Positions 8-10,230 of a stretch of DNA of 64,000 bases are shown here, piece by piece. Source of the stretch: an uncultured Gemmatimonadaceae bacterium. Its GTDB lineage: Bacteria > Gemmatimonadota > Gemmatimonadetes > Gemmatimonadales > Gemmatimonadaceae. The translations under genes and the position numbers were made by a program. Numbering within the stretch: position 1 is the stretch's first letter; each line of letters starts with the position of its first letter. The stretch is from contig OY970320.1 of the NCBI GenBank assembly GCA_963716745.1, positions 2,336,001 through 2,400,000 on the forward strand, read 5' to 3'. A model generated the notes under the pieces. That model ran no database searches. It had not been told where the DNA came from and saw nothing but the letters and a program-made list of their open reading frames with translations.

Positions 8-30
8 TTGTCGCGCGACACTTTGCGACA
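8..30. promoter_or_regulatory. Right arm of upstream palindrome (TTGTCGCGCGACACTTTGCGACA), candidate enhancer (UAS) of RHS1
   Basis: Identical to 5161-5183 upstream of RHS2; ends about 61 nt before the sigma54 motif; left arm presumably lies off the window edge. Confidence 0.7.
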
Positions 31-90
31 GTGCCCTCCATCGGAAAACAAAACTCGTTGTGGCCGAGTGGCTTGGCGATGTGGAAGAGT

Positions 91-106
91 TGGCACCGGA
101 CGTGCT
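91..106 (+). promoter_or_regulatory. sigma54 -24/-12 promoter of RHS1
   Basis: TGGCACCGGACGTGCT: GG (92-93) and GC (104-105) at canonical spacing; same position as the motif upstream of RHS2. Confidence 0.7.
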
Positions 107-151
107 TAGTAGCGTGGCGAATGACTCCACCCTTCGCCATCGGAGCTGACA

Positions 152-3100
152 ATGTCGTCCTCCCCCAGGTCTGTTGCCTCCCGCCGGTTCCTGTCGCTCT
201 CAACGATGGCGGCCGCATTGATCATGCTCGCCGTACCCGCCCAACGGCTTGTCGCGCAGTGCTCCGGCCAACTGCAAACCATAAGCCCTTGCACAATATC
301 GTTTCGATACCCTACCAGCACGGTAGCGCAAGCCGTCAACTACTTGATCACCAATTCCAATCGCATCAATGCCGCGAGTTATAGTCTGACATGTACGCCT
401 TCTCCTTCGTCGTTGGCGAGTTGCTCCGTGCCGGGAGTCGTGGTCGTGCCAGCGGGCGGGAGCAAGGGATTTGCAATGCATTTTACCACGGGCAGCGCAG
501 GAGGCTCGGGAACCATTACCGTGTCCGCCTCGGGCGGCAATGACGACCTCAGTGCGACTGTGAATCTTACGGTGGACCCCATGTCGATCACGCCGAAGGG
601 GGCCGTAGCCGTCGACACACCCAGCACCGCCTACAAACAGATCTTTGTGGTCAGGAACACATCGTTCACGCCCGACACGTTGAACATTACCGTCAGCTGC
701 GACGCGGCCATTGCATCGACGTGCACGCGGAGCCCGACTTCGCTCATCCTCGGTGCGGGGACAAGCGCCAATGACACCGTGAGCTATACCACTCAGGGCG
801 AGAACAAGACCGGCTTGGTTCGCCTCATCGGCGTGATGAGCACCCACAGTACTGTGGCGGATACCGGCTGGGTCTCGGTCTCCGTCCCTGCGCCGCAACC
901 GCCCGTTGTCTCGGCGCTGCCCACGAACGGGGATAACCACGCCGCAGCGCTGTGTTTATTGCAATGCTTCGACATGGTGACGAGCTACAGCACGCCGTCG
1001 TATACAAGCCGCGACGAACCACGATCCGCGACGCTCGTATATAACTCGGCGCAGGCAGCGCCAATGGGTGAGGTCGCGTTTGATGTGACCGATCCGACGC
1101 TGCGAGCTCCGGTCATCTCATTGTCTTTGCAACGCCCGAATGGGAGCAACGTCACGTTTACGAACGGCAATACAGAGCTGTATTGGAATGACTCGATCCC
1201 CGGTGCGACGGCGCGCGTGAGCGCGCAATTCTATGACAGTACACTGACGACGGGAGTATACGATTACACGGCCATTGTGAAGCTGCGTTGGACCAAGCAC
1301 CTGGATAGCGGGACAGTCACGCAAACGAACGTCCCGGTGCAGGTCCTCATCGTGAATGAACGGGCCAGTGTGTACGGAGCCGGATGGTCCCTCGCAGGCG
1401 CGCAGCGCCTCTATTTCCCGGCACTACCCGACACCAACATGATCCTGGTGAGCGACGGAGAGGGAGGGCTGGCACGTTTCGCCCGCTGGGGGCCGCTCAC
1501 GGCCAATCCGGCTGCCGCGGACTTCAGCACGATCACGACCGTGAAGAGCGGCGGCACGATCACCGGGTATGTTCGCGGATATGCCGACAGCACGAACCTT
1601 CGGTTCTCGGCGACCGGCTACTTGCTGAGTGTGAAGAATCGCTTTGGCGACAGCACCCGCTATCACTATGATGCCTCGAATCGCGTTGACAGCATCATCG
1701 ATCCGGCAGGGAAGGCGTTGGTGCTCGCGTACAGCAGCAACAAGATCAGCACGATCACCGATCCCGGTGGACGCGTGAGCCAGTTCACGGTGAACGCGAA
1801 CGGCGACCTTGCCACGATCAAGGACCCGACCGGCGCCACCACGTTCACGGGCACGTACGACACCACATCCGCGCCGACTACCGCCAAGCGCCATCATCTG
1901 CTCCAGCGCACTGATCGGCGCGGGAGTTCCTGGATCGCGACATACGACTTTGCGGGCAAGATCGCAACCGACAGCACGCCGCCCGTCTATGCCGATAGCG
2001 CTACAAAGCGGATAGGGAAGAGGTATCAATCGCTAGAAGTCGCCCAGTTGATCGACCCTGGATCGGGGTTAGGAACCTCAACCACCAACTACGCTCCGGA
2101 GCTTATTTCGTCTAACGTTCGACTTCTCGTGACCGCGTCCAATGGCGACTTCATGAGGTACGCTGTGGATCGGTTCGGGGCATCGACTCTCGTCGAGCAT
2201 CCGTGGGGCCTATCCACCGAGACTATCACGCGGGACGCGAACTCGCTTCCTACGCGCGCTCTGTCGGTACTCAATGGAAAGACGCTCGTGAATCAGGTCG
2301 TGGTTTACTCCCTGAACGGATCGCCGATCACTCAGGTCGACAGTCTCACGAAGGGCACCACGACGATCAGCTACGATACCAAATACAATCTCGTGACCTC
2401 AGTGAGCGGAGCTGTTGCAACGGTCTTTGCCAACTTCCTGAATGCGACGAAGAGCTGGGTCGACAGCACGCGCTTCGGCGTGTGCTGCTCGGACAGCACA
2501 GTGATCTATGTGCATGACACCCATGGGCGCACGACTCTTGTCCGAGACCAACAGCGGGATAGCACCGTATATTCCTTCGCCGCCGACGCATCGTTCGGCA
2601 ATCTTCTGTCGATTCAATTCGGCAACCGCCTGACTCAGATTCGGTACGACGGATATGGCCGTGCCGTCCGAGTACTCAATCCGAAGCGCGACAGCCTTAC
2701 TGTTTCGCTTGACTCGCTGAACCGCGCGCGGTCGGTGACCGATCCGGAGGGCGCGGCGGTAACGTATGGCTACGATTCGCTCTATCTCAAGTCCGTAACG
2801 GATAGGAAGGGGCAAAGCTATTCATTCGCGCGAGATGCGCTCGGTTGGGTGGATACGCTCACGAATTCCAACTCTGGCGATTCATTGACGCATCGCCTCG
2901 ACATATTTTGGTACTCCGCGCGAGGCTCGACCATCGCGCACTTCGACCGGCAGACGCCGCGAGTCCGCACGAGCTTCACCTACGACTCTCTCGGAAGGTT
3001 GCACTCGCGAACTCTTGGAAACGGCCAAACGACTACTTATGCGTACGATCCGAGCGGGCTCTCGCGCGCAGCCTCCAACGGAGAGTCGATCGATACATTA

Positions 3101-4987
3101 TCCGCAGACAGCGCCGCGATGCATCGAATCCAAGTCACACACCGTGGGACCCACCGATACACGGTTGCTCTCACGGCTGATTCCGTCGGCTACTTACGAA
3201 CGGTCGCCACTACGGCCGATGGCTCTACGTTGAAATCGGTCGCTCTCGACTACGATCTCGTAGGCCGATTGGCCTCGCTCACCGTGGGCGGCAATCAGAC
3301 ATCTCTCTCCTACAATAGAGATGGTATCCTCACGCAGGTCGCTCTTCCTACCCTCCCTGTGTTCTACGTCTATGACTCGGTGACCGCGGGCCACATGCCG
3401 TTCAAGGCGGATTACTCGATTACCGCCCTCGATCAGGCGTTCGGTGCGATCTACACGAGAGACACTTTGGATCGTATCGTGCAGCGCACGAAAGTGGCCC
3501 TCGATACGAGTTGGACGTACGCCTACGGCAATCTTGGGCGACTGACGGCGTATCAGGCCCTGAGTGACACTTCTGCGGAGACGTGCACACCTGATCAATT
3601 TCACCAGGATGGCCAGATCTGCACGAGCGCGCACGGACAGAAGGTGATCACACAGTCGAATTTCACGTATGACTCCGTGGGGAACCGAACCGACAATAGT
3701 GCAGTGCTCATCGCCGGCAATCGACTCACGAGCTTCAATGGCTTCACGCTTTCGTACGACTACAATGGCAACCTGACACACAAGTCCACCACGGGCTTCG
3801 ATCAGTACTATTACTGGAACAGCATTGGTGAGCTCGACAGCGTCAAGACCTTGAGAAGTGGAGTCGTCGATAGCGTCAGCTTCGGCTACGATGGATTCGG
3901 GCGCCGGGTGCGGAAGAGTCATATCGGCCATACGCTGCGCTACGTCTACAACGGCGACGACGTGATGGCCGAGATCGACTCGGCGACGGGCGCGGCGGTG
4001 CGCGTCTATACGTACTATGGACCGGATGTCCCACACTCTGTGACAAAGCAGGGAAAGACCGAGTACTATTTGCAGGACTTCGCGGCTGGACACGTCGTTG
4101 CGCTGATCGACAGCAACCGGGTAGTACGCGAGCGTTATCGCTATGGCCCGTGGGGGCAAGCGGAGGATTCGATGATAGCGGACACGGTCGCTCAGCCATA
4201 CCGCTACGCTGGAGGCACCTACGACCCCGAAACGCAACTCTACTATTTCCGCGCGAGGTACTACGATCCAGCGTTAGCTCGCTTCATCTCCGAAGATCCT
4301 ATCGGTCTCGGTGGCGGCATCAATCAGTACGCATACGTGCAGGATCAACCCATCGACGCGAGTGATCTGAGTGGAATGGTAGTAATAAAGGCGTGCCCCT
4401 ACGCCTTGCCTGACGGATACTACGTGTGTCGCCTTCCGGGAGGGCAGCTACTCATCAACAACGCCTCGTCGGCTATCTCTGGTCTGATTGGGATGCCTGC
4501 CTGCCTCCCTGAGGATTTGGGATGCTGGTACCCAACCGGCGATGATTCGCCGAAGACGGGAACTGGGGATTCATTGATGGATGCGTCGCTGAAGTTTGAG
4601 AAGTGCTTGCGGGACGGCACGGATCCCACAGGCTGTATTCCACAACCGCCTTCGGTGTCTGTAGCGTGCGGTGGCGACACCGGGCAGTACTTGTTCCAGT
4701 GCGACTGGTGGGTGGTAACGATCGTGGAGGCTCCGATGTTTTTCGTTCCGACCGATCCCAAGGGTGCGAGCAAGCCTACATTGCCTTACGATCCGATTCT
4801 CAAGTGCGCGATGGACACCGCCTGTCCCGTAATAGGGGCGGCCTCTTCACCGAAGCGCTACGAGTCTAGCTTCCCTGCGATAACATCCTCCGCGACGGGC
4901 TACTGCTCTAACATTGAGGCACTCGCGGCGGGAGCGGCACTCATTTGGGAGAGGTTCAGTGCAATCCTCATGGCGTGTTCACAATAG
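152..4987 (+). CDS. Secreted RHS/YD-repeat protein (RHS1) with N-terminal Ig-like domains and Cys-rich C-terminal tip
   Basis: Signal peptide; Ser/Thr-rich beta domains; many YD repeats; core LYYFRARYYDP...RFISEDPIG...NQYAY...PIDASDLSG. Confidence 0.95.
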   Translation: MSSSPRSVASRRFLSLSTMAAALIMLAVPAQRLVAQCSGQLQTISPCTISFRYPTSTVAQAVNYLITNSNRINAASYSLTCTPSPSSLASCSVPGVVVVPAGGSKGFAMHFTTGSAGGSGTITVSASGGNDDLSATVNLTVDPMSITPKGAVAVDTPSTAYKQIFVVRNTSFTPDTLNITVSCDAAIASTCTRSPTSLILGAGTSANDTVSYTTQGENKTGLVRLIGVMSTHSTVADTGWVSVSVPAPQPPVVSALPTNGDNHAAALCLLQCFDMVTSYSTPSYTSRDEPRSATLVYNSAQAAPMGEVAFDVTDPTLRAPVISLSLQRPNGSNVTFTNGNTELYWNDSIPGATARVSAQFYDSTLTTGVYDYTAIVKLRWTKHLDSGTVTQTNVPVQVLIVNERASVYGAGWSLAGAQRLYFPALPDTNMILVSDGEGGLARFARWGPLTANPAAADFSTITTVKSGGTITGYVRGYADSTNLRFSATGYLLSVKNRFGDSTRYHYDASNRVDSIIDPAGKALVLAYSSNKISTITDPGGRVSQFTVNANGDLATIKDPTGATTFTGTYDTTSAPTTAKRHHLLQRTDRRGSSWIATYDFAGKIATDSTPPVYADSATKRIGKRYQSLEVAQLIDPGSGLGTSTTNYAPELISSNVRLLVTASNGDFMRYAVDRFGASTLVEHPWGLSTETITRDANSLPTRALSVLNGKTLVNQVVVYSLNGSPITQVDSLTKGTTTISYDTKYNLVTSVSGAVATVFANFLNATKSWVDSTRFGVCCSDSTVIYVHDTHGRTTLVRDQQRDSTVYSFAADASFGNLLSIQFGNRLTQIRYDGYGRAVRVLNPKRDSLTVSLDSLNRARSVTDPEGAAVTYGYDSLYLKSVTDRKGQSYSFARDALGWVDTLTNSNSGDSLTHRLDIFWYSARGSTIAHFDRQTPRVRTSFTYDSLGRLHSRTLGNGQTTTYAYDPSGLSRAASNGESIDTLSADSAAMHRIQVTHRGTHRYTVALTADSVGYLRTVATTADGSTLKSVALDYDLVGRLASLTVGGNQTSLSYNRDGILTQVALPTLPVFYVYDSVTAGHMPFKADYSITALDQAFGAIYTRDTLDRIVQRTKVALDTSWTYAYGNLGRLTAYQALSDTSAETCTPDQFHQDGQICTSAHGQKVITQSNFTYDSVGNRTDNSAVLIAGNRLTSFNGFTLSYDYNGNLTHKSTTGFDQYYYWNSIGELDSVKTLRSGVVDSVSFGYDGFGRRVRKSHIGHTLRYVYNGDDVMAEIDSATGAAVRVYTYYGPDVPHSVTKQGKTEYYLQDFAAGHVVALIDSNRVVRERYRYGPWGQAEDSMIADTVAQPYRYAGGTYDPETQLYYFRARYYDPALARFISEDPIGLGGGINQYAYVQDQPIDASDLSGMVVIKACPYALPDGYYVCRLPGGQLLINNASSAISGLIGMPACLPEDLGCWYPTGDDSPKTGTGDSLMDASLKFEKCLRDGTDPTGCIPQPPSVSVACGGDTGQYLFQCDWWVVTIVEAPMFFVPTDPKGASKPTLPYDPILKCAMDTACPVIGAASSPKRYESSFPAITSSATGYCSNIEALAAGAALIWERFSAILMACSQ

Positions 4988-5046
4988 GAATCAGTGCAGT
5001 TCCGACCGTAGGCGCATTGCGTAGGTAGGACCGTTAACAGACGCAA

Positions 5047-5084
5047 GAGCGACGTCGCGCGCGCAGTTCGCCGCGACGTCGCTC
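5047..5084. terminator. 13-bp GC-rich hairpin after RHS1, possible terminator
   Basis: GAGCGACGTCGCG / CGCGACGTCGCTC perfect stem; no clear U-tract. Confidence 0.35.
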
Positions 5085-5128
5085 GTGCCTTGTATCCGTG
5101 GCTGGAACGGTGGCCCGACCGCGCTGCG

Positions 5129-5185
5129 ATTGTCGCAAAGTGTCGCGCGACAACCGGGCTTTGTCGCGCGACACTTTGCGACAAT
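5129..5185. promoter_or_regulatory. Perfect 25-bp inverted repeat (7-nt spacer), candidate bEBP enhancer of RHS2
   Basis: ATTGTCGCAAAGTGTCGCGCGACAA-ccgggct-TTGTCGCGCGACACTTTGCGACAAT; multiple TGTCGC/GCGACA half-sites. Confidence 0.75.
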
Positions 5186-5244
5186 GGGACCGCGGCAAAA
5201 AATGAACTCCTTGCAGCCTAGTCACTTAGCGCAGTAACAGGTGG

Positions 5245-5260
5245 TGGCACTAAACCTGCC
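5245..5260 (+). promoter_or_regulatory. sigma54 -24/-12 promoter of RHS2
   Basis: TGGCACTAAACCTGCC: GG 5246-47, GC 5258-59; about 62 nt from the palindrome. Confidence 0.7.
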
Positions 5261-5301
5261 TTAGTGCAGAGCGACGACCCACACTCCATCAGGAGCCGGC
5301 C

Positions 5302-8300
5302 ATGTCGCTCAGCCATGTTCTTGCGCCTTTGTTCGCCGTCATTGCTGTGGTTCCGCCGACACCCCCGGCACCCGCGACCGCGCCGAGCAGTGCGCCGACG
5401 CCGACGCGCCTCTTCTTGTGCCCCGGGACGGTCGAGCAGCTGAGCCCCTGTACGGCTTCAGGGAGCACGACCACGAACAATCAGTTCCAAGAGGTATACG
5501 GGCTCTCGAACAACTCGATCGAGGATGATGACGTATCGATCGAGCTCTCCGGCCTGTCGAGCTCGATAGCGACGTGCACCTCGAACGTCCCCGACGTGAC
5601 CGTTCGATCGCATGGCGCCGCCAATTTCATCGTGACCTGCACAGGTGGCGCTGGCGGAGGCTCGGGAAATCTGACTGTCACTACCCTCGGCATCGCGGAA
5701 CTCACTTCCACCTTGACCGTGACGGTCACCGCCCCGAGCACCATTTCCGTGACTCCACAGACCACGTTGAACACCACGGCCCTTCCGAATACGGCTTACA
5801 AGCAGATCTACACCATCACCAATCTCTCCAGTACGGCAGTGAGCGATAGCACGTTCGTCACGTGCGACGCGGGCGAGACCTCGTGTTCGGTGAAGCCGAG
5901 AGTCCTATCGCTCGGCGGGAACGCCTCGGGAACGGATACCCTTTTCTATTCATCGGTTGGTTCAGGTACCAGCGGAACCGCGACCCACACGGCTAAAGTG
6001 ACCGGTCAACCGAACTCCGTTGCGACGAGCACGATCTCTGTGGCCGTGCCCGCTGCAATGGCGCCGAGCGTGGGTTCCTACCCGCAGAACGGCGACATTC
6101 GCTCGCCCGGGATGTGCGCTGTGTCCTGCCTCGATAAAGTCGCAGCGTTCAGCACGCCAGCATACACCAGCTATGACACCCCACGTTCCGTGACGCTCTT
6201 CTACTCGAGCGCACAGGCCGCGCCAATGGGAGAGGTCCAGCTGCAGGTTGCTAATGCGAGTGCGCGCCCTCCGAATCGAGATGTCGCTCCAGCTGCAGCG
6301 CCCCAATGCTAGCTTCGTGACGTTCACGAACGGCGCGAACGAGCTCTTTTGGAGCCAGCCCTCGACCGCTTTTTATAGGATTGGAGGGCAGTTCGACGCG
6401 AGTATGCTCACGACCGGGGTGTATAACTACACCGCCATCGTGAAGTCCCGCTGGACGCTGCACGGACCCGATAGCGGTACCGTTACGCAAACGACCGTGG
6501 CCGTGAAGGTATTGATCGTAAACGGGCGAAATGGATCTTACGGCACCGGCTGGTCGGTGGCGGGCCTGCACCGCCTTCGCTTCCCGGTTGCGCCGGACAC
6601 CCTCACGATCCTGGACACCAATGGGTCCGGCGGGATTGTGCGATTCACGCAGGCGTCGAAGAATGCGGTGGCTGTCCCAGCGGCGGCAGACTATACCACG
6701 ATCACCACCACACTGAGCGGATCGACCGTCACCGGCTATAAGCGGATCTTCCCGAGTGGCGACACGCTCTTCTACTCATCCACCGGCTACCTGATCCTCT
6801 CGAAGAACCGGCTTGGCGACAGCACGCGCTTCCACTACAACGCGAGCTCGTTGTTGGACAGCATCATCGATCCAGCGGGGAAGGCGGTGAAGCTGCTCTA
6901 TACGGGGAACGGGTTGTTCAGCATCACGGACCCTGGTGGCCGCGTGACCATGTTCAACATCGCCGCGGTCGGCGGCGATATGCAGAACATCACCGACGCA
7001 ACGGGCACGATCGCGTTCGCCGGGACCTACGATGCCTCACATCGCCTGACGCAGGCGATCGACCGGAGCGGCACGAACACGTGGCTGAGCCGCTACGACT
7101 TCGCCGGCAAGCTTGCATCGGACAGCACACCGGCCGTATGGGCGGATAGCACCACAGCCAGAATCGGCGGACGTTATCATTCGCTCCAATCGGCCTTCCT
7201 CATCGACCCCGCCTCTGGGAAGGGCACGGCAGCGAACGCCGCAACTCCCGTGCTGGAGGATAGCATTCGCGTGGCGGTCGTTTCGCCAAGCGGCGATTCT
7301 GTGCGATACGCCCTGGATCGGTACGGGGCACCGACGATCACCGACATGCCGAATCAGAAGACCACGATCGTGACCGCGCGGAACCCCGACGGCACGGTGT
7401 ATCACTCGATCACGACGGCGCGGGGAAGGGTGGTCTCCACGATCTGGACGTGGTGGGTCAACGGCCAGGTGATCACGACCACGGACAGCATCACAAACGC
7501 GACGATCGTCTATACATACGACAGTAAGTACGGTTTACTGACGGACGTCGGTGGGAATACGACTCCGGTAAAGAACTTCCTGAATCTGGCAAAGAGCTGG
7601 GTAGACAGCACCCGCACCGGAACGTGTGGCGCATGCACCGACAGTGTGACGCGGTACTCGCACGAATCGCACGGCCGGCTTAACAAACTCATCGATCCGC
7701 AGCTCGACACCACGGTGTACACTTTCGACACGGCGAGCGCAGGATTCAAGAATCTGCTCTCGACTCGGCAGGGCCCTCATACCACCACTCTCCGGTACGA
7801 CGGGTATGGTCGAGCAGTCCGTGTGATCAATGCGCGCGGAGACAGCGCGATCGTATCGCTCGACTCGCTCAATCGGACCAGGAATGTGAAGGGCCCGCAG
7901 GGCAGCATTGTGTCATACACTTACGACCCGCTCTTCCTGCGCACCGTCACGGACGCGAAGAGTCAGGTTTATTCGTACTATCGGAATGCGCTCGGCTGGA
8001 TGGACTCCGTGGTGAATGCGAACACCGGTGACCCGGCCGCTAATCGTGTGGATAAGTACGAGTACAGCAAGCTGGGGCTGACCAAGGCGCACATTAACCG
8101 TCGAGGTCAGCGCACGAGCATGACCTATGACCAACAGGGCCGCCTGCTCACGCTCAACCTTGCGGGTGGACGCGTCTCGAACTTCGCGTACGACACAGCG
8201 GGTCTCTGGGCGAAGGCCTGGAACGGAGAGTCGTTCGACAGTATACGCACGGACAGTACGGGCCTCTGGACGGTCCAGTACACGAAACGTGGGACGCACT

Positions 8301-10230
8301 GGTTCACGGACAGCTCCACGGTGGATATCACCGGTTTGCCGCAATCGTTCACCGTCAAGGGGGAGACCAGCACGTTGTCCGCCATCACGTATGGCTACGA
8401 CTCGAATCGACGTCTTAATTCGATGACGGTCGACGGTAAGCTCACGAGCTTTGTCCACAACCGCGATGGCATGCTGACTTCCCTGAGTCTCCCAACCTCA
8501 CCGCAGCAGACCATCGGTTTTTCAGTCACGCGCGGCCACGAGGACTATTCAGTAACGTACTCGAAGCCGCCGAACACTCTCTACGATCAGCTCGCTGCAT
8601 ATCTCAACTTTGACTCGCTCGGCCGGATCCGTCAGCGGATCAAGCTGCGCCAGGATACGACAAGGTCGTACGCGTACGATTCGGTCGCGCGACTGACCAA
8701 TTATCAGGTCTTGCAGGACACCTCGGCATTGAGCTGCCTCGTCGATGCCGCGGGCTTCGCGGGAGAGCGTTGCACGAGCGCGCACGGCGAGAAAGTCCTT
8801 TCTCAAACGACGTTCACATACGACAGCGTCGGAAACCCGACCGATGGCGGGGCGACAGTCATAGCCGGCAATAGATTGACGGCGTACAATGGCTACACTC
8901 TCACGTACGACTACGACGGCAACCTGACACATAAGCACAGTTCGACGTTCGACCAGCTTCTCTACTGGAACAGCATCGGGCAGCTCGACAGCGTGAAGAC
9001 GGGTACATCGCTAGTCAGCTATGGCTACAATGCAATGGGCCGTCGCGTACGCAAGACCACGGCGACCCAGTCTCTACGCTACATCTACGCCGGCAGTCAG
9101 ATGATCGCCGAGATAGATTCGGCCACCAATAGCGCGGTTCGGGTGTACTCCTATTACGGCACGGAGCCCCCCACAGCGTGAAAACAGCCACGGGTACCTA
9201 CTATTACATATCGGAAATGGGAACAGGTCACGTCGTCGCGCTGATCGACAGCCTCAATGTGGTGAAGAATCGGTACCGCTATAGCCCGTTCGGCCAGCTC
9301 GAGGATTCGAGCGAGACGATTCTTCAATCCGATCCGCTTCGCGGGCCGCGAATACGATGCGGAGACCCAACTCTACTTCAATCGCGCGCGATACTACGAC
9401 GCGAAGTCTCCGTCGGTTCGTGTCGGAGGACCCCATCGGCCTCGGCGGCGGGATAAACCAGTATGCGTACGCGAGCAATGACCCGATCAATCATCGGATC
9501 CGTGCGGTCTATTCTGACTGTTGGACCTCGACAGGAGTGCCCCGCCAACTAGGCGTCGAAACAGACGGCAGCTGCAGTGCATGGCGGCAGCGCGGGCGGC
9601 GGGGGCGGTGGTGGTGGCGGCGCCGGCGGGGATGGTGGACACTACGATTACGAATCAACCTACCACGAAGGCGGAGCTGTTGTGGTAGGCAATACTGGTG
9701 GTATTGGGGCCTGTAACCCAAATGTAATGGTGGGCGCAGATTACAAATGGTGCAATTCTAGCGGCGGACTGGTCGCGGGGGTCAACGGATACTGGACCTC
9801 TACTCTGGCCTGGGTTGCCAATGGTGGAACAATGTCAATGCCGCAGCCAATGAGTGGCGGCGGGGGCGGCGGTGGTGGTGGAGCCGACGGAAGTTCCCCG
9901 GCGTCTAGAGAGACGTTTGGGCAATGCCTGCTCAATAAGAACAAAGGCCTCGCGACAGACTTGTTGGTGGCGACAGGCATCGTTACGCCGATTGCGTACG
10001 GCATGTCGGTGGAATCAGGCGGGGCCGCCGCAGGCGCTATCGGAACTGGCGTCGCTAGGGGGCTCGGAACATTCGGTATCAGGACTCTCGTCGCGGAGGG
10101 CGCGACGGCGGCGACGGAGGGCGCTGCGGTCGCTGCTGGCGGGGCCGCACTTGCTGGCGCTGGATTCATTGCGTCGATTGTGCTAGTTACAGAGGCTGTC
10201 TTGGCGGTGGAGTGTGCGAACCACTGGTGA
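5302..10230 (+). CDS. Secreted RHS/YD-repeat protein (RHS2), paralog of RHS1, split by several frameshifts; Gly/Ala-rich hydrophobic C-terminal tip
   Basis: ORFs 5302-6312, 6248-9181, 9178-9456, 9357-9716, 9577-10230 are collinear with RHS1 (STPAYTS..PRS.TL.Y.SAQAAPMGEV; RRFVSEDPIGLGGGINQYAY). Confidence 0.9.

Follow-up and report, generated by a model that had tools for sequence, protein, structure and literature searches.

What switches on the two RHS genes that open the stretch of DNA studied here, and where is the switch encoded? The window, by which we mean the whole 64,000-nucleotide stretch that was analyzed, comes from an uncultured Gemmatimonadaceae bacterium and corresponds to G000:C1:2336001-2400000 of a single-contig genome of 3,292,296 bp and 67% G+C (G, C and L numbers are our handles for genomes, contigs and loci). 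A preliminary description of its first 5,301 positions had noted that both RHS genes are preceded by the same succession of palindrome, A-rich tract and sigma-54 promoter, and had proposed an RHS regulon under a dedicated activator not encoded in the window. As judged from sequence, this succession is a real, conserved unit of bacterial enhancer-binding protein (bEBP), enhancer and sigma-54 promoter, and each palindromic array is quite probably the upstream activating sequence (UAS, or enhancer) of a minimal bEBP, called bEBP-B in what follows, that belongs to an adjacent type II secretion cluster.

The two copies of the array agree closely. The 23-mer TTGTCGCGCGACACTTTGCGACA is found in identical form at window positions 8-30 and 5161-5183, and copy 2 is a perfect 25-bp inverted repeat with arms at 5129-5153 and 5161-5185 and a 7-nt spacer between them, in agreement with its predicted fold. 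Copy 1 is cut by the edge of the window, and the bases expected ahead of position 1 had been predicted; the predicted 22-mer, TGTCGCAAAGTGTCGCGCGACA, is indeed read at G000:C1:2335978-2335999, ending one base short of window position 1, so that copy 1 is the same two-arm repeat as copy 2. Enhancer array 1 thus comprises a left arm at genome positions 2335978-2336000 and, at 1-30 of the window, the spacer (1-7) and right arm (8-30), 53 bp in full, while enhancer array 2 occupies 5131-5183, with the perfect inverted repeat reaching out to 5129-5185; both are given for the forward strand. Each 53-bp array holds six TGTCGC/GCGACA half-sites at the same offsets, with starts at 0>, 10>, 16<, 31>, 37< and 47<, which form two full 12-bp palindromes with centers 21 bp apart, each accompanied by an outer half-site 10 bp away. 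An unusually long enhancer with many half-sites had been anticipated and this is what the arrays provide. Their centers lie 88 nt upstream of the promoter GG, within the range of ~80-150 bp used for phased dyad sites.

These arrays are confined to the RHS genes. The 12-bp core palindrome TGTCGCGCGACA has four copies in the genome versus 0.39 expected from base composition, and all four belong to the two RHS arrays (a two-mismatch search for the 12-mer returned hundreds of matches in this 67% G+C genome and is not informative). Half-sites occur singly 3,515 times and at least three lie within 60 bp at 7 places, of which the two RHS arrays, with six each, are the only ones with more than three. 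A dispersed repeat of the repetitive extragenic palindrome or miniature inverted-repeat element kind (REP/MITE-like) does not describe an array present at two loci only, each before an RHS gene, and the palindrome is not a random repeat unlinked to promoters, the concern raised in the preliminary description, because every copy stands at an RHS array with a -24/-12 site. The proposed RHS regulon therefore exists as an array-defined set, but in this genome it contains only the two RHS genes. Pairwise alignment of copies 1 and 2 gives 46/46 identical positions in the arms, 2/7 in the spacer between them, 32/60 in the stretch from array to promoter and 94/168 (56%) over all non-arm columns upstream of the ATG, as expected from the earlier remark that the intervening bases diverge. 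Since the RHS1 and RHS2 proteins are only 37% identical over their N-terminal 289 residues and 51% identical over 984 core residues, the duplication must be old and the arms have been held constant.

Downstream of each array is a promoter of the sigma-54 type, for which the consensus is TGGCAC-N5-TTGC. The sequence TGGCAC-N7-GC (TGGCAC-N5-nTGC) begins 61 nt (copy 1) and 62 nt (copy 2) after the 23-mer, leaving a spacer of 60-61 nt, and the two promoters, TGGCACcggacGTGC at 91-105 and TGGCACtaaacCTGC at 5245-5259 on the forward strand, have the expected GG-N10-GC layout in a TGGCAC-N5-TTGC-like context, with predicted starts near 117 and 5271. From the T of TGGCAC to the ATG there are 61 nt for RHS1 (ATG 152) and 57 nt for RHS2 (ATG 5302), and a GGAG ribosome-binding site is placed six nt ahead of each start codon (142-154 on the forward strand for RHS1, with GGAG at 142-145 and ATG at 152-154; 5292-5304 for RHS2, with GGAG at 5292-5295 and ATG at 5302-5304). 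The coordinates agree with those first reported for the 23-mer, the inverted repeat of copy 2, the A-rich tract and the distances to TGGCAC and ATG. A scan detected neither a sigma-70-like promoter nor a terminator-like site in either intergenic region. The promoter pattern alone is not rare, with 36 occurrences genome-wide on both strands versus 62 expected, and it is therefore position and orientation at both sites that carry the evidence.

The activator had been assigned to DNA outside the window, and this is correct, but it is by no means remote. An open reading frame (ORF) that ends 4 nt upstream of array 1, 27 nt outside the window, encodes bEBP-B, with matches to PF00158 Sigma54_activat (in two pieces, 41 and 121 bits) and AAA_lid_14, a GAFSGA loop of the GAFTGA type and a C-terminal Fis-type helix-turn-helix (HTH) domain (HTH_8, 46.6 bits) that reads LGVHRATLYRRMRRLG. 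Its N-terminal part, MSNPATALLLGDSP.., with the Walker A sequence GPTGSGKE, is in a different frame. Only ~10 residues precede the AAA+ domain, so that bEBP-B is without a receiver or sensor domain. The gene closes a Gsp-type type II secretion cluster (G000:C1:2324823-2335973; L001:823-11973) that lies outside the window directly upstream of RHS1, in the order bEBP-A, GspE, GspF, pseudopilin/GspK-like, GspL/M-like, secretin and bEBP-B. None of the bEBPs of the cluster reaches an NCBIfam equivalog cut-off, the PspF model giving 158-209 bits versus cut-offs of 443-529. Lack of rpoN, which the preliminary description had held to be fatal, can be set aside, as PF04552 is matched with 158.6 bits at G000:C1:288209-288686; the genome has 15 Sigma54_activat matches.

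Pairing of the motif with -24/-12 sites extends to other Gemmatimonadota genomes. Scanning 185,579 species genomes for the exact pattern TGTCGC-N4-TGTCGCGCGACA gave 63 loci, 13 of them in metagenome-assembled genomes (MAGs) that are Gemmatimonadota by record title; of these 13, L071 and L072 span one and the same pair of sites, and a single MAG contributes both L023 and L028. Within 160 nt there is a strict sigma-54 pattern at 7/13 of the Gemmatimonadota loci as against 2/50 of the others, which serve as a control for chance, and the mean number of half-sites is 5.7 versus 3.4. Further GG-N10-GC sites were recognized by eye at L055 (TGGCCG..), L049 (TGGTCC..) and L033/L059 (TGGAAC..). Two of the matches outside Gemmatimonadota, L021 and L065 (by record title a delta proteobacterium and Myxococcales), combine three half-sites with a sigma-54 pattern at distances of 59 and 61 nt; the coincidence of spacing could be chance or could be a related module in another phylum.

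Gene order is conserved as well. The succession secretin, minimal bEBP (311-339 aa), TGTCGC array, sigma-54 pattern and RHS gene recurs at L023/L111, L039, L071/L112 and L055. In terms of Pfam matches, L023/L111 reads GspM_b, secretin, bEBP (329 aa), array and RHS, with bEBP-A, GspE, G and K also upstream in L111; L039 reads secretin, bEBP (339 aa), array and RHS (1260 aa); L071/L112 reads GspE, G, F, K, M, secretin, bEBP (333 aa), array, a 157-aa ORF, a second array and RHS; and L055 reads bEBP (311 aa), array and RHS (1303 aa). ORFs in the lower-GC loci were called by length. A 4-nt overlap joins the secretin stop to the bEBP start in both L039 and L071, arrays follow immediately 3' of the bEBP-B stop in 5 genomes, and in G069 the second copy carries a duplicated bEBP 3' end. 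A looser pattern, used with a phylum sample of 401 genomes, matched in 17 genomes, the reversed-pattern control giving single matches in 7; clear two-strand arrays are present in G000, G069 (same family as G000), G100, G102, G390 and G170, and the single matches in G118 and G011 proved real on inspection. A search for relatives with bEBP-B gave L005-L008 as its best matches, and these had no TGTCGC arrays, L005 having only a degenerate CGTCGCGCGACC. Tallies of the relatives search, the phylum sample and the family search described below include the unpublished genome G012, and those of the family search also the unpublished G427, G487 and G426, none of which is the basis for a statement about a single locus. 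One locus is ordered unlike the others: in L113 (G170:C81) three tandem TGTCGCGCGACA palindromes in 11-bp phase at 3440-3473 would drive a minus-strand gene, whose 686-aa product matches no Pfam family, and the bEBP gene that follows it.

The geometry of the array relative to the promoter was compared in a table of 18 rows, which reduces to 16 distinct sites once the duplicate of our own copy 1 and L039 (the same record as G100) are removed; nine or more genomes contributed, some closely related, and the sites are not independent. The distance between array edge and TGGCAC is 59-61 nt in 12 of the 16 and is kept across different layouts. Arrays are 34-54 bp long, with about six half-sites in most cases when sites with one mismatch are counted. 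The plan described above is shared by the G100/G102/L027 group, G118 and L055, while G069 has three direct plus three inverted sites, G390 the order 0> 10> 20> 26< 31>* 37<, and G170 its three tandem palindromes in 11-bp phase; shorter forms are found in G011, L036 and L033.

When the genomes are stacked with anchoring on the right, a second element emerges between array and promoter, A(C/G/T)TTAGC(G/A), with an invariant TT and an end 12-13 nt upstream of TGGCAC. Its copy-1 form, GCTTGGCG, is at 71-78 and ends 12 nt before TGGCAC, and its copy-2 form, ACTTAGCG, is at 5224-5231, 13 nt before, both on the forward strand. The motif is also seen at L039, L027, L055, L127 and others, and in some lineages it belongs, as the right half, to a further inverted repeat, CTAAGTCG..CGACTTAG, with its center near -57. 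The sole other place in the genome where ..TTAGCG.. is combined with a sigma-54-like pattern is G000:C1:155870 (TGGCCCacctcTTGC), ~12 nt before a lipoprotein-like gene that starts MNKRPFLAALALLAA... Farther upstream, forward-strand A-tracts run into AACTCGTTG (45-60, copy 1) and AACTCCTTG (5196-5213, copy 2); in both of our copies the A-tract is followed by AACTC(G/C)TTG, which takes the place of an element like CTAAGTCGTTG in related genomes, and the element at 45-60 is possibly a site for an architectural protein. Bending by IHF had been suggested in the preliminary description. The consensus for IHF is WATCAANNNNTTR, and by eye AATGAACTCCTTG of copy 2 agrees at 8/9 and ACAAAACTCGTTG of copy 1 at 6/9 specified positions, a partial match, with one HU/IHF-family gene (PF00216) in the genome. 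Bending by IHF is no more than possible, and what is conserved across genomes is a different motif, ..TTAGC...

Does each bEBP of this kind go with an array of its own? A search of 201 family genomes with the bEBP of L039 returned 30 loci, of which we inspected 27, leaving out L114 and L115 (100% match to the query) and L131 (unpublished genome). Stop-to-stop frames of at most 410 aa are present at 13 of the 27 loci, and a sigma-54-like pattern occurs within 260 nt after the stop in 8 of these 13, and additionally in L118 and L119. Only L122 (G069) has TGTCGC arrays. Other repeats, recognized by eye, take their place in other genera of the same family: L127 has ATTCGCG..ATTCGCA..TTCGCGCGAA..CGCGAAT, which is our own plan with the half-site TTCGC, and L120 has TGCAAA/TTTGCG, L118 TGCAAC/GTTGCG and L124 CCGATTGG/CCAATCGG, each of the four arrays followed by a ..TTAG.. 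motif and a promoter. At 5 of the 27 loci (L119, L127, L132, L116 and L120) the downstream gene is homologous to RHS N-termini, a count made in flanks of only ~1.5 kb. These observations fit enhancers that evolve together with the adjacent activator, and such co-evolving pairs are possible. A specificity code in the recognition helix of the HTH was considered and rejected, the helices behind TGTCGC and TTCGC arrays being nearly identical.

From these data we infer the following mechanism. The Fis-type HTH domains of bEBP-B would occupy the six phased TGTCGC half-sites and so nucleate the AAA+ hexamer, which would be brought by the ~60-nt spacer, with its A/T tract and ..TTAGC.. motif, to sigma-54 holoenzyme at TGGCAC-N5-nTGC. 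Hydrolysis of ATP would then open the promoter, and transcription of RHS1 and RHS2 would begin ~35 and ~31 nt ahead of the respective ATG. bEBP-B would be co-transcribed with the secretion genes and the RHS genes would be expressed after them, in a feed-forward manner; since bEBP-B has no regulatory domain of its own, RHS expression would track the secretion machine. Binding, looping, start sites, dependence on sigma-54, operon structure and feed-forward logic are all predicted here from DNA sequence; what is observed is the anatomy of the module, its restriction to two places in the genome, its recurrence with bEBP and RHS genes in other genomes and an rpoN gene.

Several observations weigh against this mechanism. 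The -12 element is GTGC or CTGC rather than the textbook TTGC, with G or C in place of the -12 T, and 4 of the 16 sites have spacings other than 59-61 nt (51, 70, 70 and 80 nt). Assignment of bEBP to array rests on adjacency, and, as noted, HTH helices that are nearly identical belong to bEBPs tied to TGTCGC and to TTCGC arrays. The same-genus genomes G001-G005, 63-89% complete, yielded no close bEBP-B orthologue. As RNA, the arrays are also predicted to form strong hairpins. Finally, bEBP-B and rpoN each contain a +1 frame change and, if these changes are real, the system is inactive in this genome.

The last point deserves closer inspection. In bEBP-B, the secretin, rpoN and RHS2 alike, the frame shifts by +1 at a short dinucleotide context. 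In bEBP-B there is one, between ..CAIPD and ..EMFEDALFGH, while the orthologues in L023, L039, L055 and L071 have intact frames; in rpoN the last 30 positions of PF04552, including ARRTVAKYR (the RpoN box), are in a shifted frame; and RHS2 changes frame several times, around 6250-6312 and around 9100-9500. Further +1 changes occur at G000:C1:289952-290393 and other sites, and lptB and other ABC ATPases are also affected. Whereas rpoB and gyrA are intact, the 46 ABC_tran matches include four adjacent split pairs (one of them lptB, beside rpoN) and two lone partials, a rate of about 4 split domains in ~40 ABC-ATPase domains and approximately one frame change per 3-4 kb of sampled domain. Together with a completeness of 89.8% for a genome in one contig, the split pairs make assembly error the simpler reading, so that the changes in bEBP-B, secretin, rpoN and RHS2 are probably indels of a long-read assembly. 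A pseudogenized system, truly decaying in this strain, is the less simple reading, possible but set aside on the same grounds. A look-up of sequencing runs over a 10-kb stretch that takes in the bEBP, both arrays and both promoters returned none, RNA included.

The alternative that fares best is that the array is real but is bound by a different regulator, namely bEBP-A, a hetero-oligomer of bEBP-A and bEBP-B (compare HrpR/HrpS) or a repressor. This we regard as improbable. It gains from the dependence on adjacency just mentioned and from the second sensor-less bEBP, the 352-aa bEBP-A (L001:823-1881), which stands at the head of the cluster both here and in G069. However, bEBP-A was not detected in the G390 cluster (L112), where there are nevertheless two arrays, and it is the bEBP-B stop that arrays immediately follow in 5 genomes. 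In addition, the HTH of bEBP-A, LGKSRATLYRWKKKL, differs from that of bEBP-B, and bEBP-A has a candidate site of its own: the intergenic region between bEBP-A and gspE (L001:1882-2033; G000:C1:2325882-2326033) contains the palindrome GAGACGTCTC and a sigma-54-like TGGCCC-N5-ATGC site, TGGCCCgagtcATGC, a combination that may serve the secretion operon as an enhancer-promoter pair of its own.

It is more doubtful still that the inverted repeat acts mainly as RNA, as a 3' stem-loop that terminates or stabilizes the bEBP-B/type II secretion mRNA (copy 1) and the RHS1 mRNA (copy 2), with the sigma-54 promoter served by another enhancer or by none. Both copies do lie directly after a stop-codon region, and their RNA folds are strong (-45.5 and -55.1 kcal/mol, z about -8 to -9), as are those of the arrays of three other genomes. 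Yet neither stem is followed by a T-run and the terminator scan is silent there, as it should not be for an intrinsic terminator, and an Rfam scan of the arrays found no family at gathering score (hairpin matches to microRNA families, with 25-35 bits versus gathering scores of 100-114, and a match to a small RNA, with 25.6 versus 37, were rejected). Moreover, a hairpin needs neither a conserved hexamer nor 10-11 bp phasing, which includes direct repeats, nor a distance of 59-61 nt to TGGCAC. A dual role, as enhancer and as hairpin at the transcript end, is possible. That the shared module is a remnant of duplication or a product of gene conversion without regulatory role can hardly be maintained, for although the weak similarity of the flanks makes a common origin of the copies by duplication likely, and the second copy in G069 has its duplicated bEBP 3' end, gene conversion would not skip the 7-nt spacer (2/7) between perfect arms (46/46) set in flanks of 56% identity, and the same half-sites and spacing are found in other genera.

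Returning to the enhancer of bEBP-B as the preferred reading, its presumed targets are the only genes of the genome with RHS repeats. RHS1 (152-4987, forward strand) encodes 1611 aa with RHS/YD repeats, an Rhs-associated core at aa 1331-1409 and a C-terminal tail of ~200 aa. RHS2 (5302-9181, forward strand) is split into two ORFs: 5302-6312, which runs colinear with RHS1 aa 37-320, and 6248-9181, which does so with aa 322-1294. By eye, both N-termini are signal-peptide-like. No ORF for an immunity protein is present at 4988-5130 of the window, between the RHS1 stop and array 2; immunity to RHS1 may be encoded elsewhere, or its target may not be a sibling cell.

How does the unit compare with known systems? 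At glnAp2, NtrC uses several dyad enhancer sites upstream of a sigma-54 promoter as a scaffold for its oligomer. Much the same holds for NorR at norVW, where three enhancer sites are essential and form a scaffold for the oligomer (PMC2941729). The likeness is evident, several dyad sites upstream of a sigma-54 promoter, the six half-sites here amounting to three dyads' worth; the differences are that the half-sites read TGTCGC and share only 34-54 bp, with a layout that varies (-> -><- -><- <-; three direct plus three inverted; three tandem palindromes in 11-bp phase) and that bEBP-B has no GAF or receiver domain. The latter feature is reminiscent of PspF (psp) and HrpR/HrpS (hrpL), which also lack an N-terminal regulatory domain and are encoded next to their target promoter, although the targets here are RHS genes and the PspF equivalog cut-off is not reached. 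For bEBPs the roles of the domains, UAS binding and IHF-assisted looping are established, PspF acting with IHF between UAS and promoter (PMC7175178), and HrpRS are reported to control a secretion regulon (PMC3105312). No negative regulator like PspA or HrpV turned up here, no search having been aimed at one. VasH and Sfa2 of type VI secretion clusters follow the same logic as is proposed for bEBP-B, but in the present case the machine is Gsp-like type II, the bEBP gene comes last, behind that of the secretin, the organisms are Gemmatimonadota and the enhancer anatomy is a sequence-based definition.

With regard to export, comparative genomics has given many RHS toxins the label T2SS (type II secretion system), some of them in Gemmatimonadetes (PMC3482391). 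The signal-peptide-like N-termini of RHS1 and RHS2 place them close to this class. Within its first 300,000 characters that paper contains neither 'sigma-54' nor 'secretin' and does not describe RHS genes adjoined by a dedicated Gsp cluster that has a bEBP of its own. Full-text searches of the literature, with most subscription journals outside their range, found no paper in which RHS or type II secretion genes of Gemmatimonadota/Gemmatimonadetes are placed under sigma-54, and none with the arrangement described here.

What emerges is an enhancer-activator-promoter triple in Gemmatimonadota that is defined by sequence and can be tested. With its natural series of layouts, all standing ~60 nt off the promoter, the triple could be used to study the assembly of bEBP hexamers on DNA, and lineage-specific arrays behind orthologous bEBPs may give orthogonal sigma-54 switches. 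A bolder version of the proposal is tentative, and we think it unlikely to hold in full: the array would act as the hexamer's template, each HTH having its own phased half-site among six, and evolution would have kept a count of about six and the 60-nt distance while permuting the layout and, in other genera, the half-site sequence, and the Gsp operon would have RHS proteins with signal peptides as its dedicated cargo. If true, it would imply a checkpoint of machine first and toxin second, along with naturally orthogonal bEBP-enhancer pairs. The recurrence of the Gsp-type cluster with RHS genes in other Gemmatimonadota suggests a secretion machine dedicated to RHS proteins, and this link between RHS and Gsp suggests in turn both an export route and a regulatory checkpoint for RHS toxins.

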